A stretch of 60,244 bases of DNA from Candidatus Cloacimonadota bacterium (lineage in GTDB: Bacteria > Cloacimonadota > Cloacimonadia > JGIOTU-2 > B8-G9), in the NCBI GenBank assembly GCA_003647765.1, contig QMNM01000001.1:1-60244 (forward strand). Reading direction: 5' to 3'. Both the position numbers and the translations under genes were made by a program. Positions 5,303 through 46,425 of this stretch are shown one piece after another. The notes beneath the pieces are model-generated. The model did not search any database, was not told where the DNA came from, and worked only from the letters and a program-made list of their open reading frames with translations. The number at the start of each line of letters is the position of its first letter. The first letter of the stretch is position 1.

Positions 5303-7673
5303 AACTCAAATCCTTTCCTATTTTTCCTTCAGTTTCAATGGGGTATCCAACATTGATGCCCCAATGCTTTTTTATGTATTCTTTCGTTCTATTTTCAAAA
5401 CAATCTTTCAATATCTCTTGTGCTTTTTCGGCAACATCTTCTCTTGCTCTATAATAGTAGGCATCGTGGATAAAAAGGTTAGTCAGGATTACTTTATCTT
5501 TCAGGTCGGGGCGGGATTTTATTTCCTTCCAGAACAACATTATTCCAAGACATGCTAGTTCGCTACTGAAATTCTGAACAGGAGTATTGATTGCCTGCCT
5601 TTCCGCTTTACTTCTCAACCTGAAATCATCAGAATCAATATGCGGTAAATGTCTTTTCCTTCCTAAAACACATCTTATATACTTATGCTTTCTTGCAAAC
5701 TTAACCATTCGTTCATGATATAAAGGAAGTTTCCAGTATCCATTGGGTTTAGAGAAGAAAAGTTCTCTATATCGCTCTGCTTCTTCTAAAGTGAAGACGA
5801 CATCATAGTTTTTAAAAGCATAATCAACCAGAGAATTTGCCTGCATTCCGTATATTAATCCAAAATTTATCGGCTTTGAGAGCTGTCTCAAGTCTTTAGT
5901 AATTTCTTCTAAAGGCTTTCCTGAAATAAGGGAGGCTGTTCTTTTATGTAAATCTATCCCTTCATCTAAAGATTTCAGGATATTTTCATCTTGAGCCAGC
6001 CAGCCTATTATTCTCATTTCACTTTGACTTAAATCCTGACTGCATATAACCCAGCCATCTTCGGCTACAATATTTCCCAAAACCTTTTCAGAGAATTCTC
6101 CGTGTGCTGGAAATTGTTGCATAGGAGGGTCTAATATTACAGTTCTCCCTGTTACTGTTCCTGTTAGGAATATCTTTGGGTAAATATATCCATCTGGATA
6201 CAGATTTTTTCTTATTGCTTTGATGTAAGTGTTCAGAATTTTGCTTATCTGTTTATATCTTAATAGCTTTGCGACCCATTCGTTATCTTTGAATCGTTTT
6301 AGATGATATTTATCGGTAGAAGGTTGTTTTGTTTTTTCTGTAAATTCAACAGGTTTCAATCCCAGCCCTTTCTTTGTAAACATAAACTTTGCAATGATGT
6401 CGGGAGTTAATGAGTCTGCATCTTTCTTTATTGATTTAGGGATAGCATCCATTAATTCCTTTTCCAATTTTTTCATCTCTGTATAGAGAGAATCTTCGTT
6501 TTCATCTAGTTTATTCAGGTCTATTTTCCATCCGTTCGCAGATACATCGCTGAAAACGTTTTCAACGGGAAGGCAGTAATATTTGTAATATCTGGTTAAT
6601 TTTTTATCTTCCATAATCTTTTTCTTCAGGACATTGAAGACTTCAATAGTAACTTTAGCATCAAGACTGACATAATTCAGGAGCTTGCTTTCTTCTAATT
6701 TTTCCATCTCTGTCCTATTTCTATTCACTACATCTTTTATATTGTAGTAGGAAGTGAAGACATTTGCCAGATGCTCTAGGGAATAGGAAGCTAGGTTTTC
6801 ATCTACAACATGAGCCATTGTCATTACATCAAATATTTGTCCTTTAACTTCGCAACCAAGATTCTTTTTACATACAAGTTCATCAAAAGGACGATTATGC
6901 ACGACTTTCTTTATATTCTCATCTTCCAGTATTTTCTTTATACTTTCTTTGAGTTTATTGTCTTTGGTAAGGGATGCGTAGGGCAACCCTTCTTTTCCTG
7001 CCAGACCTATACATAAGACTTTTCCTTTCATGTGTGCGACCCGCAGGTTCTCTGTTTCAAGGTCAAAAGCTATTATTTTTCCTTTGGGCAAATTGATTGT
7101 TGTATATTCATGTTTAAAATCTTCCTTCTGTTTATAGAGAGCGACAGCATGTTTGATGTCGGCATAAAACAATTTCTCTACTTCATTCATCTTTTCTAAT
7201 GGAATATACGGATACCCACGCTTGCATTGTCTTAAAACATAGGCAGGATGAAATGTTGGAATAACAACAGCATCTCCGAAGGGAAATTGTAGTCCTCTGA
7301 AACTGGAAATTCTTTTCTTATTGAACATCTGATAGAGAGCCAGTTCTCCTAATAAGACAATCACTTTGGGTTTGAGGATTCCCAGAGCTTTTACAACATG
7401 TTCTTTACAGCACTTTGATGCTTTTTCTAAATCGGTTTTTTTATCCTGCCCTAATTTCTGGCACATTGTAGCATTCAAGATAGATATATCTACTCTAGAC
7501 ATCCCAAAGAGTGAAAACGTTTTCATTAAGAGTCGCCCACTTTCTCCTACAAAAGGACGACCTTCTCTTACTTCTTCCCACCCAGGACCTTCTCCTATAA
7601 CCACAAATTCAGGATTATTTTTCTCATATTTAACTTTCTTTCTTCCTTTAAAAGGACAATCTTTACAGCTCAT
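5289..7673 (-). CDS. polA: Family-A DNA polymerase fused to an N-terminal family-4 uracil-DNA-glycosylase-like domain and a 3'-5' exonuclease domain.
   Basis: UDG4 motifs GEGPG..PFVGESGRLL and HPAYVLR, plus N-terminal Cys residues. Exo I motif FDLETENL. Pol motif A DLSQSEMRI and motif B RQLSKPINFGLIYGM. Motif C-like IHDA. Confidence 0.9.
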   Translation of the reverse strand: MSCKDCPFKGRKKVKYEKNNPEFVVIGEGPGWEEVREGRPFVGESGRLLMKTFSLFGMSRVDISILNATMCQKLGQDKKTDLEKASKCCKEHVVKALGILKPKVIVLLGELALYQMFNKKRISSFRGLQFPFGDAVVIPTFHPAYVLRQCKRGYPYIPLEKMNEVEKLFYADIKHAVALYKQKEDFKHEYTTINLPKGKIIAFDLETENLRVAHMKGKVLCIGLAGKEGLPYASLTKDNKLKESIKKILEDENIKKVVHNRPFDELVCKKNLGCEVKGQIFDVMTMAHVVDENLASYSLEHLANVFTSYYNIKDVVNRNRTEMEKLEESKLLNYVSLDAKVTIEVFNVLKKKIMEDKKLTRYYKYYCLPVENVFSDVSANGWKIDLNKLDENEDSLYTEMKKLEKELMDAIPKSIKKDADSLTPDIIAKFMFTKKGLGLKPVEFTEKTKQPSTDKYHLKRFKDNEWVAKLLRYKQISKILNTYIKAIRKNLYPDGYIYPKIFLTGTVTGRTVILDPPMQQFPAHGEFSEKVLGNIVAEDGWVICSQDLSQSEMRIIGWLAQDENILKSLDEGIDLHKRTASLISGKPLEEITKDLRQLSKPINFGLIYGMQANSLVDYAFKNYDVVFTLEEAERYRELFFSKPNGYWKLPLYHERMVKFARKHKYIRCVLGRKRHLPHIDSDDFRLRSKAERQAINTPVQNFSSELACLGIMLFWKEIKSRPDLKDKVILTNLFIHDAYYYRAREDVAEKAQEILKDCFENRTKEYIKKHWGINVGYPIETEGKIGKDLSFNNP
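6551..6564. repeat. TGAAAACGTTTTCA palindrome, perfect copy, inside polA.
   Basis: Read as E-N-V-F. Confidence 0.95.
7512..7525. repeat. Palindrome, perfect copy, inside the polA UDG domain.
   Basis: Read as K-T-F-S. Confidence 0.95.
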
Positions 7674-7692: not shown

Positions 7693-8892
7693 TCATTGTA
7701 ATTTTAGGAAAGAAAAAATCCATGCTATTACATCAACAGTCCAAGCATTGCCTATTGTTTTATATCTTTGTGTGTCAGATATTTGTTTAATTCTGCCGTT
7801 TTCAAAAATTCCGTATTTTGTATAGTTATCGGGTAAAGTTTGTAATCTTTCACATTCAAGAGGAGTTAATCTCCTAATTTTTACTTTACTTCTATCTTTT
7901 TCAAACACAAGTTGTCTTCTATGCTTTTCAAAATACTGTTTCAGGTTTCCTCCTTTATAATAATTAGCATCAATACATAACGATTTGTTTCTATCTGTGA
8001 TATATTTTTCTTCAATTATTTTTGGTTGTCTGTAACCACCCTGCATTGTAGTCAATGTAGGAGATTTACCTTCAGAACTATAAATTCTTTTTATACAATC
8101 CTGTCCTTTTATAGCCAGCTCTGCTACTTGCCTGCATCTCAAACTTTCATTTACCCAACAATTTCCGTTTGAGAAATTTGTTCTCAATGTAGTAGCTTTT
8201 CCGTCAGTAATGTTCCTTCTGTTGTAAGGGTCTATAATAAAATCAAGTTTATCAGGAAGGTATTTAAAAGGCTTTTTTATGTAATATTTTTCATCTACTT
8301 CACTCTCCAAAATATCTTTCAGTAAAATACCTTTATCTTCTGGCAATCCTTTTATAGGTATATTTGTCCAATATAATCTCTTTCTATTTTGAGCTGATAC
8401 TAAAGCAGAATTGATTTCAACAGGTTCTACTTCCAGAGTTTCTGTTATTACTTTTTCCCATTTTTTCTGCATTTTTACATTTTCAAGCAAAAACCATTTA
8501 GGTCTAATTTCCTTTAATAATCTTACAAATTCCCAGAACAGATAAGATTGTCCTTCAAATTCAAATTTCTGCTGTTTTAATTCCAGATATTGTTCTAAAG
8601 TAGTAACTTCTATTTTTGTTTTAGTTGACATTCCATATCTTTTCCCACACAAAGAAAATCCCTGGCAAGGACTTCCTCCCATTATTAAATCAATATCTTC
8701 AAAATCTTCTCCTTTCAAATTTCTAATATCACCAACAAAGATTGTATTGGGAAAATTATATCTTGTTATTGCAATTGCATATTTATCAATCTCACTTGCA
8801 TAATAATTTTCATATTCAATACCTGCTCTATTCAGAGCTAATCTTCCACAAGAAATACCATCAAAAAGACTTAAGATATTCCTTAATTTCAT
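7693..8892 (-). CDS. DNA (cytosine-5)-methyltransferase.
   Basis: Motif I LFDGISCG, motif IV GGSPCQGFS, motif VI LLENV, motif X QRYKTIGNAWTV. Confidence 0.9.
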   Translation of the reverse strand: MKLRNILSLFDGISCGRLALNRAGIEYENYYASEIDKYAIAITRYNFPNTIFVGDIRNLKGEDFEDIDLIMGGSPCQGFSLCGKRYGMSTKTKIEVTTLEQYLELKQQKFEFEGQSYLFWEFVRLLKEIRPKWFLLENVKMQKKWEKVITETLEVEPVEINSALVSAQNRKRLYWTNIPIKGLPEDKGILLKDILESEVDEKYYIKKPFKYLPDKLDFIIDPYNRRNITDGKATTLRTNFSNGNCWVNESLRCRQVAELAIKGQDCIKRIYSSEGKSPTLTTMQGGYRQPKIIEEKYITDRNKSLCIDANYYKGGNLKQYFEKHRRQLVFEKDRSKVKIRRLTPLECERLQTLPDNYTKYGIFENGRIKQISDTQRYKTIGNAWTVDVIAWIFSFLKLQ

Positions 8893-8919: not shown

Positions 8920-9228
8920 TCAGGATTTCAAAAGTTCTAAAAAGTCTTTAACTCTAATAATCACAAAATCATTTTCATGTCTTTTTCCTGTAATATGCAC
9001 GACTACAATAGGGATCTTTCCTTTTGCCAGCGGGTCTTTTTTAGTGTATTCTTCCGCTTGCCGATACCATTTTTCTCCCACAAACTTCTTTCTTGATTTC
9101 GCTTCAATACAGAATTTCTCCGTTATTACATCGCTTTCTCCCAGCACTCCGACATCCTTTCCATTAAACAATTCAGCTATTGCTTTCTGGTTAGCCTTTC
9201 CTCTCCTTCTATTTCTCTTTGGATTCAT
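8920..9228 (-). CDS. Small PD-(D/E)XK nuclease, a possible Holliday-junction resolvase.
   Basis: GESDV...CIEAKSRK resembles a D...ExK core. The start was moved to the ATG at 9228, which has AAGGAGG 5 nt upstream. Confidence 0.55.
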   Translation of the reverse strand: MNPKRNRRRGKANQKAIAELFNGKDVGVLGESDVITEKFCIEAKSRKKFVGEKWYRQAEEYTKKDPLAKGKIPIVVVHITGKRHENDFVIIRVKDFLELLKS

Positions 9229-10018
9229 TTTTGTCCTCCTTAAAACATATACTTCTGAAAACACACTTCCTTGCAGGAGGAGATAATCTTGAATTACATA
9301 TTTTAGGAGAGTCTTTTGTGGGATTGAATAAATGCATGAGAAGTTCTTTTATTCTGTTTTCTATTGAATATTCGTTTTTATCCACAAAGAAAGGTTTGAT
9401 TTGCAGGTTTTGAAAGTCTTTTTTGAAATAGAGAACTACCGCTTTGTCTTTTCTGATATGGAATTTTTGTAATCCTTCGTCCAGCTTTACTTTCTTTCGT
9501 TTGAACATCCATAGGTAAGTTAGCACTTGAAAAACATGGTCAAATAAAGGTTCTTGTAAATCATCAAATTGTCGGGCATTTATGCTTTTAATTTCAGCAA
9601 TATAAATTCCTGTTGGGTCTTTATAGAGAGCATCAATGTTCCCTACCAGTTTGAACTTTTTATTTGATAATTCCAGTCTGTAATCTTCCTGAACCAGATG
9701 TTTGCAGGGAATACGATTCCAGTCCCTATAAGACAAATAGTAAACGGATTTGCATTTTGGGCATCTCCATTTTGAGATTAGATAGGAGCTATATCTAGAA
9801 AAGAAATGTTGAATCAGGATGCCGTAGGCATAGGCAAGCATAACGGGTTTAGCATAGACAGGAGATTTTCTGAAGGGCATATTGGTTTTTCTGCTGTAAT
9901 AGACCGCACGGGGGCAGATTGTTGGAAGGTCGGATACATGAAAATACAAATCATTTCTCTCCCTACCTTTAAACTCTGCCTTTAAATTGTTGTATATATC
10001 TTCAACTATTTCCTTCAT
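9209..10018 (-). CDS. Cas4/RecB-like PD-(D/E)XK exonuclease with a Cys cluster.
   Basis: NIDALY...IAEIKS (D..ExK), QVLTYLW (QxxxY), an N-terminal Cys (ICPRAVYY) and C-terminal CNSRLSPPARKCVFRSIC. Confidence 0.7.
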   Translation of the reverse strand: MKEIVEDIYNNLKAEFKGRERNDLYFHVSDLPTICPRAVYYSRKTNMPFRKSPVYAKPVMLAYAYGILIQHFFSRYSSYLISKWRCPKCKSVYYLSYRDWNRIPCKHLVQEDYRLELSNKKFKLVGNIDALYKDPTGIYIAEIKSINARQFDDLQEPLFDHVFQVLTYLWMFKRKKVKLDEGLQKFHIRKDKAVVLYFKKDFQNLQIKPFFVDKNEYSIENRIKELLMHLFNPTKDSPKICNSRLSPPARKCVFRSICFKEDKNESKEK

Positions 10019-10238
10019 CTAACATCTCCTTCTTTGTTTCGTTTAAAATAGACATGAGTTTGATAAATTTTTCCAATCTTTTATAGTTCAAAGGTTTTTC
10101 TACCAGAAGTCTATATACCTGTTGCATCTGGAATTTCAGAAGGGTCTCAAGAATTCGTTTTGCTTTCTCAAAATTTTTATCTGTCCAGTTATCTGGGTTT
10201 AGATAAATATTCATTAATTCTTCTACCAAACTCATCAC
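10002..10238 (-). CDS. Hypothetical protein.
   Basis: ORF in an operon with overlapping start and stop codons. No motif recognised. Confidence 0.5.
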   Translation of the reverse strand: MMSLVEELMNIYLNPDNWTDKNFEKAKRILETLLKFQMQQVYRLLVEKPLNYKRLEKFIKLMSILNETKKEMLDEGNS

Positions 10239-10666
10239 AACACTCCTATTTTTTTCAGAATTAGTTTATCCAAAATGAGCAAATTACCATATTCTTCCCT
10301 GAACATCCTTGCTTTCTTTTTCGCTCCAGCTTCCCATATACCTTTAATTTCAATGAAGTGTCCATTAACTTCAAAATCAGGAATATACCACTTCAGGTTG
10401 CTCAATCTGAAAGCATAAGGTTCATATTTCCATTTAAGTCTATATGCTTCGCAGAATTTTTTAGCGAAATCCAGTTCCCATCTGCTTCTGAAATTAAAAT
10501 GTGGAGGAAGTGGGAAGCCTCCTTTAATTCTCTGCGGAGGATAAGAAATCAAGTAATTAGCAAAACACTTTCCACTACAAAAAACACTATACTTATCCAC
10601 AAAAGGCATGATTACTCTTTTCTTACACCATAGACAATAATGTATCATTTTTTCCCCTCCCACCAT
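10235..10666 (-). CDS. Zinc-ribbon plus PD-(D/E)XK nuclease (DUF1064/TnsA-N-like pattern).
   Basis: CLWCKK...CSGKC followed by RSRWELDFAKK...YEPYAF...YIPDFEV..HFIEIKG. Confidence 0.55.
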   Translation of the reverse strand: MVGGEKMIHYCLWCKKRVIMPFVDKYSVFCSGKCFANYLISYPPQRIKGGFPLPPHFNFRSRWELDFAKKFCEAYRLKWKYEPYAFRLSNLKWYIPDFEVNGHFIEIKGIWEAGAKKKARMFREEYGNLLILDKLILKKIGVL

Positions 10667-22125: not shown

Positions 22126-22153
22126 TTGAAAATTTTTTCAAATTTATTATAAT
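22126..22153 (+). promoter_or_regulatory. Sigma70-like rightward promoter for the terS block.
   Basis: TTGAAA, 16 nt, TATAAT. A palindrome copy starts 7 nt downstream of the -10. Confidence 0.65.
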
Positions 22154-22159
22154 TGTCAG

Positions 22160-22173
22160 TGAAAACGTTTTCA
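22160..22173. promoter_or_regulatory. Palindrome, perfect copy, between the -10 element and the terS SD.
   Basis: It starts 7 nt after TATAAT and ends 12 nt before AAGGAGG. Confidence 0.95.
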
Positions 22174-22199
22174 ATTCAACAAAAAAAGGAGGTTGAGCG

Positions 22200-22963: not shown

Positions 22964-23473
22964 ATGATTTGTCCTGTATGTAATCTCAATTATCCTGATA
23001 GGCAGTGTCCTAGATGTGGCTGGAAGCCAGGGCACTGTCCTAACTGTGGTTTTGTTCTCATTAATGATGAGTGTTTTAGGTGCGGATTTAAACTCCTAAA
23101 AATTGAAAACGTTTTCACTCAAAAGGAGGGGAAAATGCTTAATTTAAGGCTAATTAACGAAGAAGGTAAAGAAAAAGAAATAACCGCATTAGATTTTGAA
23201 CATTTAGCAGAGAAGGTTTTTGATTTCTATTACAACGGTCAACCTAATTTCATCACTCCGCACATTTTAGAATACAGCCATAAACGGAATGGAAATAGAT
23301 TTCTGTTCGTAGAATTAAGTAAGGGAGAAGGGATTTATCATGAGCGGATATATGGAGTTACAGTTTTGGAAGGCAGACTAAAAGGGAACAAACTGTATCT
23401 GAAGCGGAGAATAGACAAAATGAAGTGTTTTAAGAATATCAATGAAGCCAAGACCTACATCAGAAGTTTATAA
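22964..23473 (+). CDS. Hypothetical protein with an N-terminal triple CxxC zinc ribbon. A second SD and ATG lie in frame at 23135.
   Basis: CPVC..CPRC..CPNC..CFRC. A palindrome copy plus AAGGAGGGG precede the internal ATG. Confidence 0.55.
   Translation: MICPVCNLNYPDRQCPRCGWKPGHCPNCGFVLINDECFRCGFKLLKIENVFTQKEGKMLNLRLINEEGKEKEITALDFEHLAEKVFDFYYNGQPNFITPHILEYSHKRNGNRFLFVELSKGEGIYHERIYGVTVLEGRLKGNKLYLKRRIDKMKCFKNINEAKTYIRSL
23104..23117. promoter_or_regulatory. Palindrome, perfect copy, before the internal SD and ATG at 23135.
   Basis: It ends 5 nt before AAGGAGGGG. It is also read as E-N-V-F in the long ORF. Confidence 0.95.
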
Positions 23474-23896: not shown

Positions 23897-24910
23897 ATGA
23901 AGCACTATTATTCAAATTACGAGCTTATAGAGATGTTCGTTGAGGGAAAAATCCCATCTGGAGAAGTAATTTATAGTTACAATGGAAATCTTACAGCGAT
24001 GGACAAGATTATTTGGACCTATAACTCTCCATTGGGAATAAAGAAAAACGGATTTATCTTAGTGAACGGTGATAATTACTCTTTTACTTCAAATAGGCAT
24101 AGAAACATGTTGCTAGAATGCACTAACACTAGAGGAACAGGGGTAGCGGTTTCATTTTCCGCTATTTCAAACCTTATAGAAGAGTTTGACTGGGACTTTA
24201 CTAGGAACTGGGATTCTGACGATAAGATTCCTGTATTACCGTTTAAAGCAAAGAGTGCATGGTTTGATTGGGTTGAGGTTATTGACTTTATACCTGATAA
24301 GCATGAATATCATGATTTTAAGTATGAGTGGAAAGCTGAAGAAAAAATGAAGGGGTATCCTGAAGATGTAAAAGTTTGTTTAGAGAGATTGAGGAAGAAT
24401 TACACAGCGACGGGAGTGAGTAAATCTAGGTGGAATGGTAAACTTATCTTTACTGTTTGGGGACACACAGCGGCGACAGTTCTCCTACGGATCAGAGGTC
24501 TGAATATCTTAGCTGGATTTGATGAAAGAAGTTATTACTGTTCTTTATTACCAAGTGGGGCTTGCACTGTAAAAGAAGCATTTGAGATATTAAAACCTGA
24601 ACCTGTAAAAAGAGCGGAAGCTGAAGGTAAGCAAGTTTTAAGACAAGGGGAATGGTTTTTTGTTAAAGTTGCGGACGATCCCAAAGAGATCGGGTTAAGA
24701 AATAAAGACTTTAAAAAGAGCTGGTTGCCATGCAGGAAGGGCGGAAGTCGGCACTGGTGCAGACTTCTCTATAAAGATGAGAAAATTTATGCTACTGGAT
24801 TAGTAAGGCACGAAGGTAGGGAACACAGGGCTTTGAAGCTGGACGGCATTTACCAAGCATATTACAATACGGCAATAATGAGTGTGAGTGCCGACTCCAG
24901 AGTTGACTAA
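23897..24910 (+). CDS. Hypothetical protein.
   Basis: 337-codon ORF with an AAGGAGGGG SD. Confidence 0.6.
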   Translation: MKHYYSNYELIEMFVEGKIPSGEVIYSYNGNLTAMDKIIWTYNSPLGIKKNGFILVNGDNYSFTSNRHRNMLLECTNTRGTGVAVSFSAISNLIEEFDWDFTRNWDSDDKIPVLPFKAKSAWFDWVEVIDFIPDKHEYHDFKYEWKAEEKMKGYPEDVKVCLERLRKNYTATGVSKSRWNGKLIFTVWGHTAATVLLRIRGLNILAGFDERSYYCSLLPSGACTVKEAFEILKPEPVKRAEAEGKQVLRQGEWFFVKVADDPKEIGLRNKDFKKSWLPCRKGGSRHWCRLLYKDEKIYATGLVRHEGREHRALKLDGIYQAYYNTAIMSVSADSRVD

Positions 24911-24945
24911 CTCCAAACTCCATATTCCACAAAATAAGCCAATAA

Positions 24946-24968
24946 CACCGCACCTTTTCGGTGCGGTG
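24946..24968 (+). other. GC-rich intergenic hairpin.
   Basis: Stem CACCGCACC/GGTGCGGTG with loop TTTTC. No T-run follows. Confidence 0.5.
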
Positions 24969-25022
24969 AATGTTCAAGTTGACAAGAAATTTAAAATAGA
25001 AGCAAAAAAAGGAGGGTTTGCT
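24964..25022 (+). repeat. Conserved cassette leader, copy 2.
   Basis: cggtgaatgttcaagttgacaagaaatttaaaatagaagcaaaaaaaggaggg. Confidence 0.8.
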
Positions 25023-25388
25023 ATGTTAAAGATTAAGTTTAAAAAAGTTTATATCTATGAGCCTGAATTGGGGAAAAAATATTGCTGCAGGTTATACGTG
25101 TATTTACCAGCCTGCAATAATTGCTTACTAAAAAAAGAACTATTAAGCGAAACCCAATTGTTGGGATCCGTTCTGCATGAAAATTGGGGAACTTTCATAG
25201 ACGAAAATGGCGAATACTGGCGACGAAAACATATCGTCTTGTTCGCAAAACATGGGTGGCAAGACCTACAACAACAGGTCAACGATGAAATAAAACATAT
25301 CATTAACCAGCTGAAAGAAATAGTAAACTTCAATAAGGAACAGGAACAAAAGAAACCTAGCGACGAGTCCCTTATAGTTGAAATATAA
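25023..25388 (+). CDS. Hypothetical protein, paralogue A of a tandem pair.
   Basis: The ATG at 25023 follows AAAGGAGGG. The N-terminus MLKIKFKKVYIYEP matches that of the next gene. Confidence 0.6.
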   Translation: MLKIKFKKVYIYEPELGKKYCCRLYVYLPACNNCLLKKELLSETQLLGSVLHENWGTFIDENGEYWRRKHIVLFAKHGWQDLQQQVNDEIKHIINQLKEIVNFNKEQEQKKPSDESLIVEI

Positions 25389-25396
25389 TAAACCGT

Positions 25397-25410
25397 TGAA
25401 AACATTTTTA
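25397..25410. promoter_or_regulatory. Degenerate palindrome TGAAAACATTTTTA, intergenic.
   Basis: It follows the stop of 25023..25388 and precedes the hairpin at 25414-25434. Confidence 0.7.
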
Positions 25411-25474
25411 ATCGGGCTACCACAACGGTAGCCCTAGACCTTACCTATAATTAAACCAAAAAAGGGGGTTGAAA

Positions 25475-25840
25475 ATGTTAAAGGTTAAAGTCAAAAAAAG
25501 TTACATTTATGATCCGACTCACAAAAGACCTTTTATTGGAATGTTAGAAGTATCCCTTCCAGCAGAAAAATGTTATATTAAAGAGCCTCTCAGGAAGTAT
25601 AAGGTTTATCTGTTTGACGAAGAATTACTTGAAAGCTGGGGTTGTTATACAGAAGATAAAGACGGTAAATGGAGATCCAGAACATATATCACCTACAAGT
25701 CTTCATGGGAAGAAGCAAAAGAAGATCTAAATAAAAAGACAGAAGAAGTGATAAACACCTTGCGTCAAATTTATAGAGAATATAAACAAAATGTCGAATC
25801 CGCTCCTAATGAAGAAGAAAACATCTATATCATAGAATAA
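25475..25840 (+). CDS. Hypothetical protein, paralogue B of the tandem pair.
   Basis: N-terminus MLKVKVKKSYIYDP. It has the same length as 25023..25388 and shares W.G...D..G.W and IN.L motifs. Confidence 0.6.
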   Translation: MLKVKVKKSYIYDPTHKRPFIGMLEVSLPAEKCYIKEPLRKYKVYLFDEELLESWGCYTEDKDGKWRSRTYITYKSSWEEAKEDLNKKTEEVINTLRQIYREYKQNVESAPNEEENIYIIE

Positions 25841-25845
25841 ATCAT

Positions 25846-25859
25846 TGAAAACATTTTCA
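25846..25859. promoter_or_regulatory. Palindrome variant (CA centre), intergenic.
   Basis: It follows the stop of 25475..25840 and lies directly before the terminator. Confidence 0.9.
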
Positions 25860-25861
25860 AC

Positions 25862-25890
25862 GGGCGGGCTTTTTGCCCGCCCTTTTTTTT
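25862..25890 (+). terminator. Intrinsic terminator.
   Basis: Stem GGGCGGGC, loop tttt, stem GCCCGCCC, followed by T8. Confidence 0.85.
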
Positions 25891-25923
25891 GCTCTCACTC
25901 TATAGACCTACGACCTAGCACAG

Positions 25924-26170
25924 CCTATATAGACTAATACTCCATTATAAATCTCTTAAAGAGATTTATAATGGGTATATGTCTATAAGGTCGTCAGCCT
26001 GTATAGACTTATATCCCATATAAAATATCTTAAAGATATTTTATATGGGTATTAGTCTATCAGGTCGGATATATACAGCTAGCACTATAGACGAGCACTC
26101 CACCCTTATATGTCTATATGCTATTATTAATTCTTTAAAGAATTAATAATAGCTATAAGACATATTAGGG
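25924..26170. repeat. Three tandem extended hairpins (25924-25990, 25998-26064, 26104-26170).
   Basis: Perfect inner palindromes of 33, 35 and 34 nt lie at 25942-25974, 26015-26049 and 26120-26153. They share the centre TCTT(T)AAAGA but have different arms. Their bases carry TATAGAC/GTCTATA. Confidence 0.9.
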
Positions 26171-26174
26171 CGGG

Positions 26175-26244
26175 CTGGAGTGAATGTCCAGGTTGACAGG
26201 TTTGATATACTGGAAGCAAAAAAACAAAACAAAGGGGGTCGCTT
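26175..26244 (+). repeat. Conserved cassette leader, copy 3.
   Basis: ctggagtgaatgtccaggttgacaggtttgatatactggaagcaaaaaaacaaaacaaaggggg. Confidence 0.8.
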
Positions 26245-26526
26245 ATGGAACTCATTATTAAAAGCATTGAAAAAATGTTCTTAAAGAGCGGGGAAAAATC
26301 TAGTAATGTGGACAAAGGAAAATTGATTGTAGATAGGGACAAATTGATTTATAAAAACGGTAAAGAGATTGAAGTAGAGCTGGAGCGGGTAGAAAAAGAA
26401 AAAAGTTATTCGTTATTATACGCAAGACTTGAATTAGAGGGCGGGATTGTTGCTCAATTAAATGTGTATGAATTGAAAAGAAAAGAAAAGAAAAATCAAC
26501 GAAAAAAATCCAGTAGCTTGATTTAA
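26245..26526 (+). CDS. Hypothetical protein.
   Basis: 93-codon ORF after AAAGGGGG. A terminator follows it. Confidence 0.5.
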   Translation: MELIIKSIEKMFLKSGEKSSNVDKGKLIVDRDKLIYKNGKEIEVELERVEKEKSYSLLYARLELEGGIVAQLNVYELKRKEKKNQRKKSSSLI

Positions 26527-26533
26527 AGTTGCA

Positions 26534-26565
26534 AGGGGCGGACAAAATGTCCGCTCCTTTTTTTT
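26534..26565 (+). terminator. Intrinsic terminator.
   Basis: Stem AGGGGCGGAC, loop aaaat, stem GTCCGCTCCT, followed by T8. Confidence 0.8.
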
Positions 26566-26639
26566 GCCCAAATAACCCCACCCCTATCGGACACAGGGGG
26601 GTTTATATAGGGGACGGGGCGGGGCTTTTTGTGAACCTC

Positions 26640-26935
26640 TCACAAAAATCCCGAATTTCAGAAAATCCCAAATTCTAGAAAATCCTAAACTTTTAAAAAT
26701 TCTAAATTTTAACTTTCTCACAAAAATCTTAAATTTCAGATGAACTTCTCACAAAAATCCTAAATTTCAGAAAATCTTAAATTTCACAAAAATCCTAAAT
26801 TTTGTAAAAATCTTAAATCTTGAATTTTGTAAAAATCCTGAATTTTAGAAAACCTTAAAATTGAAAAATCCCGAATTTCAGAAAATCTTGAATTTTGTAA
26901 AATTCTGAATTTAGGAAATCCTGAATTCTTCTATA
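26640..26935. repeat. About 15 contiguous degenerate 17-18-bp units with consensus AAAATCYYRAATTTYAG.
   Basis: Examples are aaaatcccgaatttcag, aaaatcccaaattctag, aaaatcctaaatttcag, aaaatcttaaatttcac and aaaatcctgaattttag. CTCACAAAAAT is interspersed three times. Confidence 0.85.
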
Positions 26936-26980: not shown

Positions 26981-27000
26981 AGCCCGCAGGTGGGCGGGCT
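26981..27000. other. GC-rich hairpin immediately before the twin palindrome copies.
   Basis: Stem AGCCCGC, loop aggtgg, stem GCGGGCT. GGGCGGGCTGGAGTGAA (26992-27008) is identical to 26168-26184. Confidence 0.6.
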
Positions 27001-27004
27001 GGAG

Positions 27005-27018
27005 TGAAAACGTTTTCA
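27005..27018. promoter_or_regulatory. Palindrome, perfect copy, first of a twin pair.
   Basis: Its start is 29 bp from the start of its twin (15-bp gap). It lies at the convergent junction. Confidence 0.95.
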
Positions 27019-27033
27019 ATCCGTCCCTGCCAG

Positions 27034-27047
27034 TGAAAACGTTTTCA
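27034..27047. promoter_or_regulatory. Palindrome, perfect copy, second of the twin pair.
   Basis: It ends 3 nt before the stop of the 27050 gene. Confidence 0.95.
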
Positions 27048-27049
27048 AT

Positions 27050-27612: not shown

Positions 27613-27626
27613 TGAAAACGTTTTCA
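27613..27626. promoter_or_regulatory. Palindrome, perfect copy, upstream of the SD of 27050..27595 (minus strand).
   Basis: It lies 5 nt from AAGGAGGG. Confidence 0.95.
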
Positions 27627-31414: not shown

Positions 31415-31832
31415 TTTTCTCTCCTTTTTCTGATCTTCCGAAATTATTTCCAATTTTCCAAAAATATCTCCGATTTTTAAAAATTATTCCCAATCCTATC
31501 AAAATATTCCCAAATCTCCAAAATTCTAAAATTTTCTCCTTTTTTCTGATTTATTTACCAAAATCCCTGATTATTTTCAATCTCCAAGTATTGAGCAGGG
31601 AATCAAAAATTTTGACATTAACAAAAAGTTTACATAATTCTCCGTCGGCGTGCTAGGTCGTATTAGTGTATTGATAAAGACGGGAAAATTTGTTTTTGTT
31701 TTCAAAAAGTTGTAGAGAATCCCTACTAGAAAATTCCAATTAGAGTCAAAAAATTAATTTTTGCAAAAAGTTTTTCAATTTTTCTCAAAATTTCTCAAAA
31801 TTTCTTCACAAAGCTCAATGTCAGTTCAGATA

Positions 31833-31855
31833 GCCTTAAGCCTTAAGCCTTAAGC
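31833..31855. repeat. Tandem heptamer (GCCTTAA) x3.
   Basis: gccttaagccttaagccttaagc. Each junction creates CTTAAG. Confidence 0.9.
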
Positions 31856-31899
31856 AGACCAAAATAAACCACGAGTTCTGGAAAGAAAAGAAAAGTGCA

Positions 31900-31978
31900 T
31901 CTCTAAATAAAATATTAAAATATTTTATTCAGAGACTTATAGTAAAATATAGACATTTACATGTCTTATATTTTACTA
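31900..31978. repeat. Two adjacent AT-rich hairpins. The second carries TATAGAC/GTCTTATA.
   Basis: 31900-31935 reads tctctaaataaaatatt..aatattttattcagaga. 31940-31978 reads tagtaaaatatagacat-ttac-atgtcttatattttacta. Confidence 0.75.
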
Positions 31979-32259
31979 AAGGCAAAAGAAAAGAAAGATA
32001 AACAACTAAATAAAACTAAAAATAAAAAAATATATAAATAGCCCTAGCACTATACCCTTAAGCCATTTTTTATTTTACTTTCAATTTTTGTAGGGAGACA
32101 CTTGATTTCTCCTATAAACCATTGAAAAATAAAGTTTCGCTGGAAATTTTTGATTTTGTCAGTTTAAATTTGAAATGTTGGTAAGGCAGAGAAAGCAACG
32201 CTTCCTGTTGTTTGATTTTGTCAAAAATGAAATTTCTCTATTTTTTATTGAAGTTGTTA

Positions 32260-32288
32260 TTGACAAAATGATTTTTGTGTATTATTGT
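32260..32288 (+). promoter_or_regulatory. Sigma70-like promoter of the structural (rightward) operon.
   Basis: TTGACA, 17 nt, TATTGT, about 20 nt before the ATG at 32309. Confidence 0.6.
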
Positions 32289-32308
32289 TAAGGAAAAAGG
32301 AGGTGGGC

Positions 32309-32659: not shown

Positions 32660-33059
32660 TATTACAGTGATAGCAGAGACTTTAGATGAGATTGTAGATA
32701 AAATTGGTTTAGTCAAGCATGGAGATGCGAGGATAATAACTTATGATCCCATCCCTTTACACCCCTTATTGGTGCAGTATGTAAAATTGCCTAAAAACGA
32801 AATAGAAGGAGGTTTGAGCGTTTTACAGCCATTAGAAGAATCTTACATTGCGATGGATTTTTGGACTGATGTTTATTACAGGCTTCTATTGGAAAAAAAG
32901 ATTGATAAATCTGTGCCTGAGTTTGTGTATGGGAACATTGTATTGAATTCTTGCAAGAAGTTTGATCCGAATGTTATAATAAGAGTGTTGGAAAGGAATT
33001 TCTTGGCATGGAAGACGAAGGTGAAGGTTTTTCGTTATACTGGAAATCCAGCGGATTGA
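32604..33059 (+). CDS. Hypothetical protein with a TTG start that overlaps the 3' end of the regulator gene.
   Basis: AAGGAGG lies 6 nt before the TTG at 32604. The TGA stop is part of a palindrome copy. Confidence 0.5.
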   Translation: MEGQIAIVETWSPANRTLDITVIAETLDEIVDKIGLVKHGDARIITYDPIPLHPLLVQYVKLPKNEIEGGLSVLQPLEESYIAMDFWTDVYYRLLLEKKIDKSVPEFVYGNIVLNSCKKFDPNVIIRVLERNFLAWKTKVKVFRYTGNPAD

Positions 33060-33070
33060 AAACGTTTTCA
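33057..33070. promoter_or_regulatory. Palindrome, perfect copy, upstream of the terL SD.
   Basis: Its TGA is the stop of 32604..33059. It ends 4 nt before GAGGAGGG. Confidence 0.95.
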
Positions 33071-33083
33071 CTAGAGGAGGGCG

Positions 33084-35966
33084 ATGGAGAGTTTCTCTAT
33101 AAACGAAGTTCCTTATAACTTCAATGATGTTCCTACCATTAAGAAGTTTTATCTTTCAAACAAGAAAATCAGGGCTATTGTAGGACCGTATGGTTGTTTT
33201 CCAGAATATTGTGAGTATTTGAGTTTTTCTGATGGAGAATATCGCTGGAAGAAGATCAAGGATTATCAAGAAGGGGAAAAGATTGCGGTTTATGATTTTG
33301 AGACAAAGGAGCTTCGGTTTGAGAAGCCTTTGGCTTATGTAAAGCTCCCTATGAATGATCTCTGGATTCATATTCGTGGCAGTAGATTTTTTGAAGCGAT
33401 AGTTTCTCCTGAACATGTCTTTCCCTATATTGTGTCTCATTCTGGGAAATATGGAGTGAAGTCCATTACTGAATTGATTAAGTGGGGGATTACGAATGCA
33501 AGGGTGGTTAATACTTTTCGCATTTGTGGGGAGACTTTTGGTTTAGATGAGTGGTTGGTCAGGTTTATAGCGATGCTTTCTGCTGATGGGCATAAGTGTT
33601 CTGATACCAGATGGCAGGTTTCTTTGAGGAGACGGAGGAAGATTGAGAGGTTGGAGTTTTTGTGCAGGAAGGTAGGAGTTCCTTATTCTCGTAAAGTTTA
33701 TGATTCCCGTCCTACTGAAAATGTTTTCATTTTAGATTTATCTTCTCATCCGCAACTTGCGGGGTTGACCAAGAAGTTTCCGAATTATTTTTACAATTTA
33801 TCTTCTGATTTACTTGATGTTTTAGTGGATGAGATTTTGTATTGGGACGGCTCATTTTACAATGGGAATGATAGGAGATATTTTACGACCATTAAGGAGA
33901 ATGCTGAATTTATCCAGTATGCTTCTCATGCAACGGGCAGGCGTGCTTCCGTTCTTAAAGTTTCGTATCCGAAAGATAATTGGAAGGATTGTTATATTGT
34001 TCATATTTCTGGGAAGGGGGTAAAGAAGACCTGTTTTATTGACAAGGATGCTCCTAAAGATAGGTCAATAAGGTATATTTCTCCGAAGGAAGGTGAATTT
34101 AAGTATTGTTTTACCACTTCAACAGGGTTTTTTCTTGTTAGGTTTAATGGAGCTGTTTATATTTCTGGGAATTCGGGCAAGTCATCTGGTTGTGTTATTA
34201 CTATGCTTCGTCATACTTGTGAGCAGATGCCAGATCCGCATGGGATAAGGAGAACTAGATGGGTTGTTGTTAGAAATTGTTATTCTGATGATACAGAGAT
34301 TCTGACAGAGAAGCGGGGCTGGGTATTGTTTAAAGATTTACTTCCTGATGATAAGGTGGCTCAATATAATCCTGCGACTGATAGATTGGAATTTGTAAAG
34401 CCGACTTATTATTATCGCTCCTATTATAGTGGAGATATGATTTGGGTTCATTCCAGTAGAAAGGAGCTTGATCTTCTTGTTACTCCAGATCATAGGCTTT
34501 ATGTTGCTGATTATAAAGATGGAAAGTGTGGGTCTTTTGATTTTAAAATGGCAAAGTTTTGTTATGGGAAGAAAGTTGCTTTTATTGGTTCTGATGGAGA
34601 GTTGATAGTTGCAGATGAATCTGATTGGGATATGGTAGCTTATAGTGGAATGGTTTATTGTGTAGAAGTTCCTACTCATATCATTTTGGTTTGCAGGAAT
34701 GGAAAACCAGTTCTTTGTTCCCAGACTTACAGACAGCTGAAGGACACAACCAAAAAGACAATAGACTACTGGTTGCGGTTTGCAGAATGGAGAGAATCAG
34801 AGTTTAAGTATATTCTCAAGTTCAGGTTGCAGGATAATACGATAGTGGAGTCTGAATGGCTTTTGAGAGCGTTGGACAGACCAGAGCATATTGCGAATTT
34901 ACTTTCTTTAGAGATAACGGGTGCGTGGTTGAATGAAGCAAGGGAGATTCCGAAGGAGATTTTTGATGCGATAGAAGGAAGATTGCGTTATCCTCCTACA
35001 ATAAGAGACAGAGATGGGAAAGTTTTATATGGTCCTACTTGGTTAGGGATTTTGTTAGACACGAACCCTCCTGATGAAGATCATTGGTTTTACAAGTATT
35101 TTGAAGAAAATAGACCAGAGAAAGCGGAGATTTTTCATCAGCCATCTGGTTTATCTCCTGAAGCGGAGAATATCAGGAATCTTCCTCCGAATTATTATCA
35201 GGATCTTTGTGTTGGCAAGGATCAGGATTGGATAGATGTTTATGTGCATGGGAAATATGGTTCTGTAAGGTCGGGCAAGCCTGTATTTTCTCTCTACAAT
35301 GATGAGATTCATTGTGCGAAAGAGCCGTTAGCTCCATTGATGGGATTTCCGTTGATAATTGGAATGGATTTTGGTTTAACTCCTGCTGCTGTGATTTTAC
35401 AGAAGCCTCCACGCAGGTTATTTGTTCTTGATGAAGTTGTAGCTGAAGAACCGATTGATGTAATTGAGTTTATTCGTTATATGCTTCTTCCTTTTATGGA
35501 GGAGAAGGAATTTTATCGGGGCAAGAATTTCATAATTGTGGGAGATCCAGCAGGTAAGGCAAGGTCGCAGGTTGATGGAAGGAGTGTATTTGAAGCGATA
35601 AATCAGTTAGGGTTGCGTGCTTATCCTGCCTATACGAACTCTTTACAAATCAGGTTAAATGCGGTAAATCAATATTTAACAAGATTGGATACTTTTGCTG
35701 GGGAGATGAAGCCAGCGTTTTTATTATCTCCTACTTGCAGGATGCTGAGGCAAGCCTTGAAAGGGAAGTATAGGATGAAAAGGGTAGCGACTGGGACAGA
35801 TATGTATTCTGATGTTCCTGTGAAGGACAAGTGGTCGCATGTTGCGGATGCGTTGCAATATGGAGCTTTAGGGTATAGGAAGCCGACTTTTAATGAAGAA
35901 TTTGATGAGTTTTCTAACATAGAAGGGCGGGGAGGACCAACGCATTTAGGAACAGGTATTTATTAA
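33084..35966 (+). CDS. terL: Terminase large subunit interrupted by two inteins. The spliced product would be about 485 aa.
   Basis: The split Walker A is IVGPYG / SGKSSG. VVVRN / TYRQLKDTT is also split. Walker B-like WLNEARE. Nuclease motifs IIGMDFGL, GDPAG and HVADALQY. Confidence 0.9.
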   Translation: MESFSINEVPYNFNDVPTIKKFYLSNKKIRAIVGPYGCFPEYCEYLSFSDGEYRWKKIKDYQEGEKIAVYDFETKELRFEKPLAYVKLPMNDLWIHIRGSRFFEAIVSPEHVFPYIVSHSGKYGVKSITELIKWGITNARVVNTFRICGETFGLDEWLVRFIAMLSADGHKCSDTRWQVSLRRRRKIERLEFLCRKVGVPYSRKVYDSRPTENVFILDLSSHPQLAGLTKKFPNYFYNLSSDLLDVLVDEILYWDGSFYNGNDRRYFTTIKENAEFIQYASHATGRRASVLKVSYPKDNWKDCYIVHISGKGVKKTCFIDKDAPKDRSIRYISPKEGEFKYCFTTSTGFFLVRFNGAVYISGNSGKSSGCVITMLRHTCEQMPDPHGIRRTRWVVVRNCYSDDTEILTEKRGWVLFKDLLPDDKVAQYNPATDRLEFVKPTYYYRSYYSGDMIWVHSSRKELDLLVTPDHRLYVADYKDGKCGSFDFKMAKFCYGKKVAFIGSDGELIVADESDWDMVAYSGMVYCVEVPTHIILVCRNGKPVLCSQTYRQLKDTTKKTIDYWLRFAEWRESEFKYILKFRLQDNTIVESEWLLRALDRPEHIANLLSLEITGAWLNEAREIPKEIFDAIEGRLRYPPTIRDRDGKVLYGPTWLGILLDTNPPDEDHWFYKYFEENRPEKAEIFHQPSGLSPEAENIRNLPPNYYQDLCVGKDQDWIDVYVHGKYGSVRSGKPVFSLYNDEIHCAKEPLAPLMGFPLIIGMDFGLTPAAVILQKPPRRLFVLDEVVAEEPIDVIEFIRYMLLPFMEEKEFYRGKNFIIVGDPAGKARSQVDGRSVFEAINQLGLRAYPAYTNSLQIRLNAVNQYLTRLDTFAGEMKPAFLLSPTCRMLRQALKGKYRMKRVATGTDMYSDVPVKDKWSHVADALQYGALGYRKPTFNEEFDEFSNIEGRGGPTHLGTGIY
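33195..34172 (+). mobile_element. Intein 1 (326 aa) with a LAGLIDADG homing-endonuclease domain, inserted in the terL P-loop.
   Basis: It starts with Cys38 (CFPEY...). Block B is VSPEH. The LAGLIDADG-like segments are FIAMLSADGH and VDEILYWDGSF. It ends ...VYISGN, followed by Ser. Confidence 0.85.
33716..33729. repeat. Palindrome variant (TG centre), inside the intein 1 endonuclease domain.
   Basis: Read as E-N-V-F. Confidence 0.9.
34278..34724 (+). mobile_element. Intein 2, a mini-intein of 149 aa, in terL.
   Basis: It starts CYSDDTEILTEKRGWVLFKDL. Block B is LVTPDHRLYV. Block F/G is VYCVEVPTHIILVCRNGKPVLCSQ, followed by Thr. Confidence 0.8.
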
Positions 35967-40484: not shown

Positions 40485-40657
40485 TGTTATTTTTGGGCAA
40501 GATTATATTTGGTGGAGAAGTTTTTTATACAGGAAATTACACATTGCCTTTGCAATTGAAAGTGAAGAAAAGCGAATTTAAGTTAGTTGTTAGGAAGAAA
40601 GGGATAGTTGTGAAGTTGACTATTCCCAATTATAATATTTTGATAGACAAAAAGTGA
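40484..40657 (+). CDS. Small hypothetical protein (57 aa). It is not in the ORF track.
   Basis: Its start is coupled to the upstream gene by an ATGA overlap. Hand translation gives MLFLGKIIFGGEVFYTGNYTLPLQLKVKKSEFKLVVRKKGIVVKLTIPNYNILIDKK. The TGA stop is part of a palindrome copy. Confidence 0.4.
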   Translation: MLFLGKIIFGGEVFYTGNYTLPLQLKVKKSEFKLVVRKKGIVVKLTIPNYNILIDKK

Positions 40658-40668
40658 AAACGTTTTCA
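40655..40668. promoter_or_regulatory. Palindrome, perfect copy, intergenic.
   Basis: Its TGA is the stop of 40484..40657. It ends 7 nt before GGAGGGAG. Confidence 0.95.
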
Positions 40669-44850: not shown

Positions 44851-44864
44851 TGAAAACGTTTTCA
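44851..44864. promoter_or_regulatory. Palindrome, perfect copy, just after the capsid terminator.
   Basis: It ends 4 nt before AAGGAGG of the 44878 gene. Confidence 0.95.
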
Positions 44865-46411: not shown

Positions 46412-46425
46412 TGAAAACGTTTTCA
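46412..46425. promoter_or_regulatory. Palindrome, perfect copy, intergenic.
   Basis: It ends 5 nt before AGGGAGG of the 46443 gene. Confidence 0.95.

Follow-up and report, generated by a model that had tools for sequence, protein, structure and literature searches.

A tandem array of perfect-core DNA palindromes, putatively part of a replication-control region, in the genome of an uncultured tailed phage

Our analysis revealed an array of three tandem AT-rich palindromes (H1 to H3) in a 60,244-nt stretch of DNA, contig QMNM01000001.1 of assembly GCA_003647765.1, which we refer to as the window. NCBI carries the proteins of this contig under a Cloacimonadota metagenome-assembled genome, but the source is an uncultured tailed double-stranded DNA (dsDNA) phage of about 60 kb. 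The window is a rotated circular map of this single phage genome, since its terminal 123 bp are identical, which gives a unit length of 60,121 bp. The array probably does not consist of RNA genes but would act as DNA, in the form of hairpins or cruciforms within a region of replication control, a putative function. Specifically, we propose that it is the dyad-symmetry part of a composite replication origin, a tentative reading to which we assign a probability of roughly 40%. The array would then be of an already known kind, namely the palindromic dyad elements of viral non-coding control regions, with a structure that is most probably maintained at the DNA level. The limits of the three palindromes are as follows.

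25921-25993, strand-neutral: H1, a 73-nt imperfect palindrome with a perfect 33-nt core (25942-25974) centred on A25958
25995-26067, strand-neutral: H2, a 73-nt imperfect palindrome with a perfect 35-nt core (26015-26049) centred on A26032
26096-26182, strand-neutral: H3, an 87-nt imperfect palindrome with a perfect 34-nt core (26120-26153), of even length and without a central base

An earlier note, made from the letters of the window, had described three hairpins with perfect inner palindromes of 33, 35 and 34 nt. These are present as described, and the hairpins are real, but the bounds first given for them were too narrow. The cores are centred on TCTT-A-AAGA in H1 and H2 and on TCTTTAAAGA in H3, in agreement with the TCTT(T)AAAGA centres read before. 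They contain 76-82% A+T, their midpoints are TTAAA or TTTAAA, and the loops are TAA or TTAA. H1 and H2 are 79% identical and represent a 74-bp tandem duplication that includes their shared flanks. H3 has the same centre and the same type of flanking box as the other two, but its boxes face outward, and it has an additional outer helix (CACTCCACCC/GGGCGGGCTGGAGTG). Comparing the three paralogues with each other, 4-9 arm positions differ per comparison and every one of them is mirrored on the other arm, in agreement with the earlier statement that the arms diverge in sequence and keep perfect complementarity. The centre-to-centre distances of 74, 104.5 and 178.5 bp equal 7.05, 9.95 and 17.0 helical turns and are the same in a related strain (L151, see below). 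This whole-turn spacing points to an architecture of duplex DNA, an argument that is post hoc. No called gene covers the array, which is overlapped only by mechanical open reading frames (ORFs) of 30-71 aa, and we thus agree that no ORF explains the region.

In 20 dinucleotide shuffles of the window the longest palindrome arm was 13 nt, compared to 16, 17 and 17 nt observed. The z-score of the array fold was -14.8 as RNA and -16.2 as DNA, and the array of L151 folded as strongly (z = -13.1). A genome-wide scan of 90-nt windows ranked H3 first (z = -6.4) and H1 second (z = -5.9), and of the five local folds ranked highest in stability, four fell into a block at 25.85-27.05 kb that is opened by the array. 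The plus and minus strand folds of the hairpins are within 2 kcal/mol of each other. Each hairpin of 29-37 pairs contains none or one G·U pair (2 of 98 pairs on the plus strand), and the palindromic symmetry continues through the loop, with H3 forming a perfect palindrome of even length.

Variant strains were reached via the neighbouring AAA_28 protein, at first as homologues with 86-87% identity and then as cluster members with at least 90%. Two of the contigs found, L151 (NCBI GCA_053938045.1, 9,904 bp), which reads through the entire array, and L152 (Logan SRR32938009), which ends within H3, are about 92% identical to the window in the flanking genes. The presence of the hairpins in close relatives, which had been suggested as a check, was thereby established for all three of them. 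Four more contigs (L142, L143, L144 and L145) show approximately 80-88% DNA identity to the window. The phage is present in the public runs SRR32938009, SRR32938005 and SRR21462135 and in the reads underlying ERZ27227322 and ERZ27248090. Differences between the window and L151 within the array are listed here.

H1, inner stem: C25953:G25963 is replaced by A:T, also in L152
H3, outer stem: GTC 26112-14 is replaced by ACT together with GAC 26159-61 by AGT, three adjacent pairs that are all Watson-Crick after the change
H3, outermost helix: G26178 is replaced by A, which yields one C·A mismatch
All remaining changes: located in loops, a bulge and spacers

Four of the 98 pairs compared between the window and L151 had changed on both arms and none on one arm alone, and 99.6% of cells were paired versus 34-47% for controls with slid partners. 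Structure is therefore kept while sequence diverges, as first noticed among the paralogues. Divergence from L151 amounted to 4.6% in stems, 6.1% at unpaired positions and about 8% in the flanking genes, which suggests that the arms drift at roughly the neutral rate, yet always jointly. The change in H1 renders the L151 core of H1 identical to that of H2 over 19 nt and may represent a single conversion event from H2. In contrast to the drifting arms, the centre motif is conserved in all three copies and in all strains.

The central base itself shows an A/T polymorphism. Over 5,916 bp, the only difference between L151 and L152 concerns the central base of H2, which is T in L151 and A in both L152 and the window. 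The centre of H1 is A in the window and T in L151 and L152. We estimate the chance that a single random difference falls on either odd-length centre as the complementary base at about 1e-4. Inversion of an odd-length palindrome complements the central base alone, and A/T centres are therefore the expected footprint of a flip/flop interconversion. An assembly artefact was considered for the H2 centre and rejected, as a k-mer size of at least 31 links the centre to the first asymmetric flank base (±18) and leaves a unique path for error-free reads; a sequencing error is possible.

Template switching at quasipalindromes is known to make the arms "perfect or more perfect" and leaves clustered templated changes (PMC7202029). 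In the Ripley model of this type of mutagenesis, with hotspots in E. coli thyA and T4 rIIB, multi-base changes are templated by the opposite arm (PMC7202029), which fits the triple change in H3 and the flipped centres. Template switching accounts for the perfect cores, the mirrored triple change and the centre flips of the array. It is a mutational mechanism and not a functional class, and it explains how the arms co-evolve but not why they are kept. Judging from these patterns, pairing between the two arms evidently takes place in vivo at the DNA level, and we infer that the palindromes are extruded in the cell, that their arms are corrected by template switching and that the surrounding block serves as an origin. 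The earlier note had taken conserved structure with divergent sequence as the signature of selected secondary structure. The conservation holds, but selection does not follow from it, because template switching produces mirrored changes as well (PMC7202029); arm-to-arm templating may be their source, not necessarily selection. The "covariation" in the array is for the same reason no proof of selection and none of an RNA structure. This carries a methodological warning beyond the present case, since covariation in palindromes is ambiguous wherever DNA template switching can produce the same pattern and cannot be taken as selection for RNA structure.

The contig ends of two relatives are informative in this context. 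L152 breaks within the H3 palindrome 13 nt beyond its centre, and L143, a relative at about 80% identity in which a right arm of H3 is present, ends 2 nt from the centre of its H3 homologue. An even-length perfect palindrome at least as long as the k-mer of the assembler would fold the de Bruijn path back on itself, so that these breaks provide indirect evidence for a perfect H3 palindrome in both strains. Even-length perfect palindromes thus break short-read assemblies at or near their centre and may be systematically hidden in metagenomes.

The main support for the suggested origin comes from an array of 17-bp iterons which lies about 460 bp downstream of the hairpins, beside rather than inside their array, and which the earlier note had missed. 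Iterons and palindromes belong to the same block of 1.2 kb, for the most part non-coding, that lies between convergent transcription units. Its other features are the following.

25845-25860, strand-neutral: TTGAAAACATTTTCAA, one copy of a palindromic motif found throughout the genome, right behind the stop codon of a 121-aa gene
25862-25890, plus strand: intrinsic terminator of the upstream gene, GGGCGGGC-TTTTT-GCCCGCCC followed by T8, with 8 G-C pairs
26203-26211, plus strand: extended -10-like element TGATATACT, read from the sequence, putative promoter of the 93-aa gene
26245-26526, plus strand: conserved 93-aa gene with a basic C-terminal tail, between hairpins and iterons
26533-26566, plus strand: terminator of the 93-aa gene
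26570-26630, strand-neutral: conserved block of G-tracts, GGGGGG..GGGG.CGGGGCGGGG, and a weak hairpin (H4) whose loop ACCCCTATCGGACACAG is conserved
26645-26928, plus strand: direct 17-bp iterons AAAATCCTAAATTT(CAG), unique to this place in the genome, with 15 copies counted by a script and about 17 by eye
26992-27048, strand-neutral: GGGCGGGCTGGAGTGAA followed by two copies of TGAAAACGTTTTCA, abutting the stop codon of the minus-strand AAA_28 gene

According to our model, the three palindromes would leave the duplex as hairpins or cruciforms and would form, together with the small conserved gene, the G-tracts and the iterons, a cis-acting block. An initiator would load on the iterons, and the readily melted palindromes would supply a structure for unwinding, helicase loading or priming. 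Two traits by which iteron origins are recognized occur here, namely direct repeats in a non-coding region (15-17 repeats of 17 bp at 26645-26928) and an adjacent AT-rich element, represented by the palindrome cores with their predicted ease of unwinding. The iterons also occur in relatives, where the same script counted 6 copies in L151, 6 in L143 and 10 in L142, with degenerate extra copies visible by eye. Other parts of the block are conserved as well. The extended -10 element, which a simple hexamer scan did not report, is identical in L151 and reads TGATATTCT in L143, and the 93-aa gene differs from that of L151 at 22 nucleotides but only at 5 amino acids. The 93-aa protein had no match in Pfam, PHROGs or NCBIfam, and its structure model was unusable (mean confidence score, pLDDT, of 45). 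The terminator in front of the array, previously described as strong, is indeed among the strongest of the region, and in L143 the same terminator is followed by a TATAGAC hairpin.

Three further observations concern this block. The G-tract block has at least four G-tracts, which makes a G-quadruplex possible, and contains an invariant 16-nt segment (ACCCTATCGGACACAG) that in L143 is flanked by TATAGAC and GTCTATA at the base of the H4 hairpin. We considered H4 as a fourth covarying hairpin, as its pairing is G:C, A:T or T:A depending on the strain, but with z-scores of +0.5, -2.3 and 0.0 in the three strains, no better than shuffles in two of them, it was rejected as such and kept as a hint. 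The 17-mer GGGCGGGCTGGAGTGAA occurs twice, at 26168-26184, where it closes H3, and at 26992-27008, with the 93-aa gene and the iterons lying in between. The copy at H3 shows 100% conservation in L143.

A number of points weigh against the proposed origin. We found no Rep or initiator family in any scanned ORF, the 93-aa protein and its neighbours being without informative homology, and no cluster of DnaA boxes. GC skew tracks the direction of transcription and marks no origin at the array. Initiation of replication at this place is suggested by sequence architecture, and the iterons could be the binding site of an initiator but also a centromere, a terminase site or the site of a regulator. 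Concerted evolution of arms and flipping of centres would be expected in any long palindrome, functional or not, and the A/T signal consists of single bases in metagenome assemblies. All three pair changes in H3 are transitions, for which a stepwise route via G·U intermediates in RNA is possible. Finally, an origin could just as well be located in a second non-coding region, at 31.4-32.3 kb, which also has repeats and hairpins. It contains a second hairpin locus:

31900-31978, strand-neutral: AT-rich palindrome (31900-31935) and adjacent hairpin (31940-31978) with TATAGAC/GTCTTATA arms

The hairpin at 31940-31978 had already been pointed out as related to the array and proved to be real, with z = -7.7 jointly with the adjacent palindrome. 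The two centres are 42 bp apart, or 4.0 helical turns. The surrounding non-coding region of about 900 bp (31415-32308) separates divergent transcription units. It holds 4.5 copies of a 20-bp repeat (31436-31525), 2.5 copies of TTTCTCAAAA, 3.4 copies of AGCCTTA and a TTGACA-17-TATTGT promoter that serves the structural operon, and is an alternative candidate for an origin or regulatory region.

Similar architectures have been described from large dsDNA viruses. Baculovirus homologous regions (hrs) are built from palindrome-containing units of about 64-72 bp in tandem and function as replication origins and enhancers (PMC4535591). Like the hrs, which occur at several loci, the phage has tandem palindrome-centred units (here of 74 bp, the palindromes measuring 33-35 bp), and it has a second hairpin locus in non-coding DNA at 31.9 kb. 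There is no sequence relationship, however, and the hr palindromes are imperfect and read by an IE-1 dimer, whereas the cores described here are perfect. The phage, which is not an insect virus, moreover has only three units and one further locus with two different hairpins, and is known from sequence alone. In herpesviruses, oriS and oriL of herpes simplex virus contain an AT-rich palindrome flanked by inverted copies of a short recognition box, and oriP of Epstein-Barr virus has a dyad-symmetry element about 1 kb from a family of direct repeats. The order TATAGAC, AT-rich palindrome, GTCTATA with 17-bp iterons 460 bp away is alike in architecture only; there is no homology, no origin-binding protein was found here, and the boxes flanking H3 are lost in a variant strain.

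If our interpretation is true, the array is a clean natural case of long perfect DNA palindromes that are retained by a phage despite their usual instability, and arm-to-arm correction and centre inversion can be read from ordinary metagenome assemblies. It would also provide a testable candidate origin, composed of a dyad-symmetry element and iterons, for an uncultured phage lineage without a known replication signal.

The strongest competing explanation is that the hairpins act as RNA, either as small structured RNAs from read-through or antisense transcription, or as RNase III-type processing or 3'-stabilising hairpins for the flanking mRNAs. Long near-perfect duplexes are substrates of RNase III, as at the sites in T7 early mRNA, and the fold of the array as RNA (z = -14.8), the complementarity preserved between strains and the transitions in H3 with their possible G·U intermediates would all agree with such a role. 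A weak promoter-like site on the minus strand (TGGACA-17-TAATAT, 9/12) is directed into H3, but its -35 element is not kept in L143, and no good plus-strand promoter was found upstream of the array. Of the two options left by the earlier note, RNA or DNA, we therefore favour the latter and consider the former unlikely. The two strands fold alike with hardly any G·U pairs, the symmetry passes through the loop, and the array lies behind a very strong terminator and ahead of the conserved extended -10 of the next gene, all of which argues for a DNA-level element. The same conclusion follows from the sole difference between L151 and L152 in 5,916 bp at the A/T centre of H2, as centre flips are a phenomenon of DNA, and from the lack of a fitting Rfam family. 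With Rfam 15 there were no matches at the gathering threshold in the whole window, and the best hit of a permissive scan was mir-280 with 32 bits against a threshold of 70, the sub-threshold matches being generic miRNA-like hairpins at less than half of the gathering scores. In T7 and in the single-stranded DNA phage G4, intergenic groups of 50-70-nt hairpins likewise share structure over sequence. The T7 RNase III sites lie within transcribed polycistronic mRNA and have asymmetric internal loops, and the three stem-loops of the G4 origin belong to sites that act on packaged single-stranded DNA. The present array differs from both, as it follows a terminator, is strand-symmetric and belongs to a dsDNA phage.

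Among readings at the DNA level, the palindromes might be flipping hairpin or cruciform elements that are actively used in the phage life cycle, where repeated extrusion would drive a high-frequency flip/flop interconversion of each of them. They could serve as a hairpin primer, or be cut by resolving nucleases for recombination-dependent replication. The centre flips described above are what such an element would leave behind, and the phage encodes two candidate enzymes:

8920-9264: RusA-like resolvase
10235-10666: T7 endonuclease I-like protein

To our knowledge, cruciform-triggered initiation has so far been tied to parvoviruses and poxviruses, not to phages, and we regard this scenario as quite improbable. 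A related idea with similarly poor prospects is that of a programmed break or processing site, where cruciforms are cut by the junction-resolving nucleases and the ends start recombination-dependent replication or define packaging. Besides the two enzymes listed, a UvsX/RecA-like recombinase and a Cas4-like PD-(D/E)XK nuclease are encoded, a small-terminase-like gene (Terminase_2-type) is the first gene of the same operon, and easy extrusion would be expected of the perfect AT-rich cores. There is no sign of genome ends at this place, however. A contig at ENA (62,106 bp, 99.97% identical to the window) has its breakpoint elsewhere, so that two independent assemblies are circularly permuted with breakpoints away from the array, and the breaks of contigs at H3 are explained by the length and symmetry of the palindrome. 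Furthermore, a single cut would not need three tandem sites.

The array could also be without function, that is, a duplicated quasipalindrome that is tolerated in a non-coding gap and owes its perfect arms solely to template switching. H1 and H2 simply repeat a 74-bp unit in tandem, the stems drift at a near-neutral rate, the H1 change in L151 looks like a conversion from H2, and template switching alone explains perfect arms, clustered mirrored changes and flipped centres (PMC7202029). Nevertheless, all three copies are found at the same place and with the same spacing in strains that have diverged by about 8%, and at least H3 in a relative diverged by about 20%. The centre motif and the flanks are conserved while the arms drift, and the surrounding block is dense in other conserved non-coding elements. 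Long perfect palindromes are usually unstable and prone to deletion, which further speaks against mere tolerance and makes this explanation distinctly unlikely in our view.

The array might instead be read by a protein as ordinary duplex DNA, without extrusion, in which case its palindromy would only mirror the symmetry of a dimer. Boxes accompany the palindromes. In H1 these are TATAGAC (25928) and GTCTATA (25981), both exact. H2 has TATAGAC (26002) and GTCTATC (26055), a right box with 6/7 matches, and in H3 GTCTATA (26112) is on the left and TATAAGAC (26154), with a 1-nt insertion, on the right, in divergent rather than convergent orientation. The inverted TATAGAC/GTCTATA repeats that the earlier note saw at the base of each hairpin are thus exact in H1 and altered on the right side of H2 and H3. 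The solitary boxes it reported are present at slightly revised positions.

25896-25907, plus strand: solitary box 1, CACTCTATAGAC; L151 and L152 read TATACAC, with a 7-nt duplication just downstream
26083-26092, plus strand: solitary box 2, CACTATAGAC; kept in L151 and L152

The window contains 16 copies of TATAGAC versus 7.0 expected, and six exact copies are inside the array. A dimer that recognizes the TCTT(T)AAAGA centre, the TATAGAC boxes or both, as in an operator, a centromere or a terminase recognition site, would account for this enrichment and for the 8 exact or near boxes within 280 bp, for the conservation of the centre in all copies and strains, for the position of the centres on the same helix face and for a related box pair between divergent promoters at 31.9 kb. 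On the other hand, in L151 both H3 boxes are replaced (GTC to ACT, GAC to AGT) and box 1 is lost as well while pairing is kept, so that the shared hairpin base does not hold for H3 of this strain and the box appears dispensable there at least; no change affects solitary box 2 or the boxes of the other two hairpins. A dimer site would have no need for 16-17 perfectly mirrored bp of variable sequence, the spacing of half-sites is unequal with one central base in H1 and H2 and none in H3, and no candidate binding protein was found. Taken together this makes a pure protein-binding array very unlikely.

A role as N4-style promoters, extruded from supercoiled DNA and read by a virion-injected RNA polymerase that might be part of a giant 2779-aa protein, is hardly credible. 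N4 has exactly three early hairpin promoters, in which non-conserved bases need merely keep the hairpin; their stem has 5-7 bp and their loop 3 nt, and a conserved heptamer, rich in G and C, is centred at -11 (PMC4496689). As in N4 there are three DNA hairpins here with some conserved and some merely pairing positions, and the giant gene lies at the end of the structural module. In N4, however, a T7-like virion RNA polymerase reads the hairpins, at the genome end that leads, and the candidate failed on stem length and composition with its 29-37 predicted pairs and cores of 76-82% A+T, the loops being TAA or TTAA. The early operons are headed by strong, near-consensus sigma-70-type promoters. 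Solitary box 2 (CACTATAGACGAG) resembles the -8 to +5 core of SP6 and T7 promoters, but CACTATAGAC is not enriched in the genome (4 copies at up to one mismatch versus 2.2 expected, 2/4 in the array), and together with the lack of any RNA_pol family match this led us to reject a T7/SP6-type promoter, too. No other ORF resembles an RNA polymerase, and the giant protein shows no polymerase similarity either:

57084-60244 joined to 124-5302: giant 2779-aa gene at the end of the structural module, crossing the junction of the circular map

No similarity of its product to any Pfam or PDB entry, including any RNA polymerase, was found, and PHROG matches were only to DarB-like giant virion proteins and unnamed families, weak and confined to the C-terminal third. 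The catalytic motifs searched (D.DGD and HD[SAC][FYW]-type) are absent, with a very remote homology to polymerases being still possible.

Several other classes of elements were considered and rejected. H1 starts with CCATTATA, which we take to be similar to telO of N15. H2 and H3 do not, the three tandem palindromes differ in sequence and no tyrosine recombinase or protelomerase family was found in the scanned ORFs, which excluded a protelomerase target (telRL). A miniature inverted-repeat transposable element or a repetitive extragenic palindromic (REP) or REPIN element was dismissed, as the unit occurs in the phage only at this locus and no HUH transposase was found; since their flanks are shared, H1 and H2 are a tandem duplication and not independent insertions. 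Type III toxin-antitoxin or CRISPR-like repeats did not fit, as the units are not identical direct repeats and no cognate gene was found.

Database searches returned no similar array. The region had no match in INPHARED phages or PLSDB plasmids. The pattern TATAGAC-N-TCTTAAAGA gave at least 120 unspecific matches in IMG/VR, none of them with comparable palindromes, and the strict two-box pattern had no match in IMG/VR or in 185,579 species genomes and seven in metagenome contigs, all of them non-palindromic chance hits. Three anchors, namely the terminator, the 17-mer closing H3 and a 23-mer around box 2, had no match in IMG/VR and the species genomes. No hairpins were seen on contigs encoding homologues (about 33% identity) of a neighbouring 337-aa protein, nor on a 37-kb contig with an AAA_28 relative of 46% identity and a different gene order, and the contig with a homologue of the 121-aa protein ends at the stop codon. 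The structure model of the 337-aa protein matches only uncharacterised DUF8033-like phage proteins. In Pfam, PHROGs and NCBIfam no neighbour protein was linked to hairpin recognition.

With regard to gene content, the nearest cultured relatives of the phage by portal protein are Rhizobium and HMO-2011-type podophages with 26-31% identity. The phage has a replisome of its own, in keeping with the proposed origin, with genes for PolA (DNA polymerase of family A), a Toprim primase and a DnaB-like helicase, and there are genes for a C5 cytosine methylase, a ResIII/DEAD helicase and a Cdc48-type AAA ATPase. Genes for TerL, an SU10-type portal and adaptor, and a capsid protein are present as well. 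An RNA polymerase, integrase, protelomerase, HUH enzyme or partition ATPase was not found among the scanned ORFs. In the family A DNA polymerase (5289-7673) an N-terminal domain of the uracil-DNA-glycosylase superfamily (residues 16-150) is fused to the exonuclease and polymerase domains. The large terminase ORF (33084-35966) encodes 960 aa. Its matches to relatives or to the Terminase_3 family are confined to the part that starts at about residue 363 or 537 and ends at 930, so that the N-terminal 360-540 residues represent an unexplained extension.

Directly upstream of the array are two paralogous small genes (24888-25388 and 25475-25840). In L151 this pair is replaced (7807-8588) by a pair encoding 121 and 124 aa without DNA alignment to 25394-25840 of the window, and from this comparison the pair would be a variable gene cassette that adjoins the array.

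The palindromic motif in front of the terminator, (T/G)TGAAAACGTTTTCA(A/C) with the 12-mer core GAAAACGTTTTC, has 24 copies in the genome at up to one mismatch, for example at 22161-22172, 23105-23116, 27614-27625, 33058-33069, 40656-40667, 44852-44863 and 46413-46424. At least 11 copies are located 4-12 nt upstream of a Shine-Dalgarno sequence on the strand of the gene, and others directly after stop codons or within ORFs. The motif could be an operator, a translational-control site or an RNA-processing site. The contig of a further related strain (L149) stops at the repeated terminator or motif. Two divergent, overlapping near-consensus sigma-70 promoters are found at 22126-22174, each with TTGAAA, a spacer of 16-17 nt and TATAAT (11/12 matches), and here the motif TTGAAAACG itself forms one of the -35 elements.

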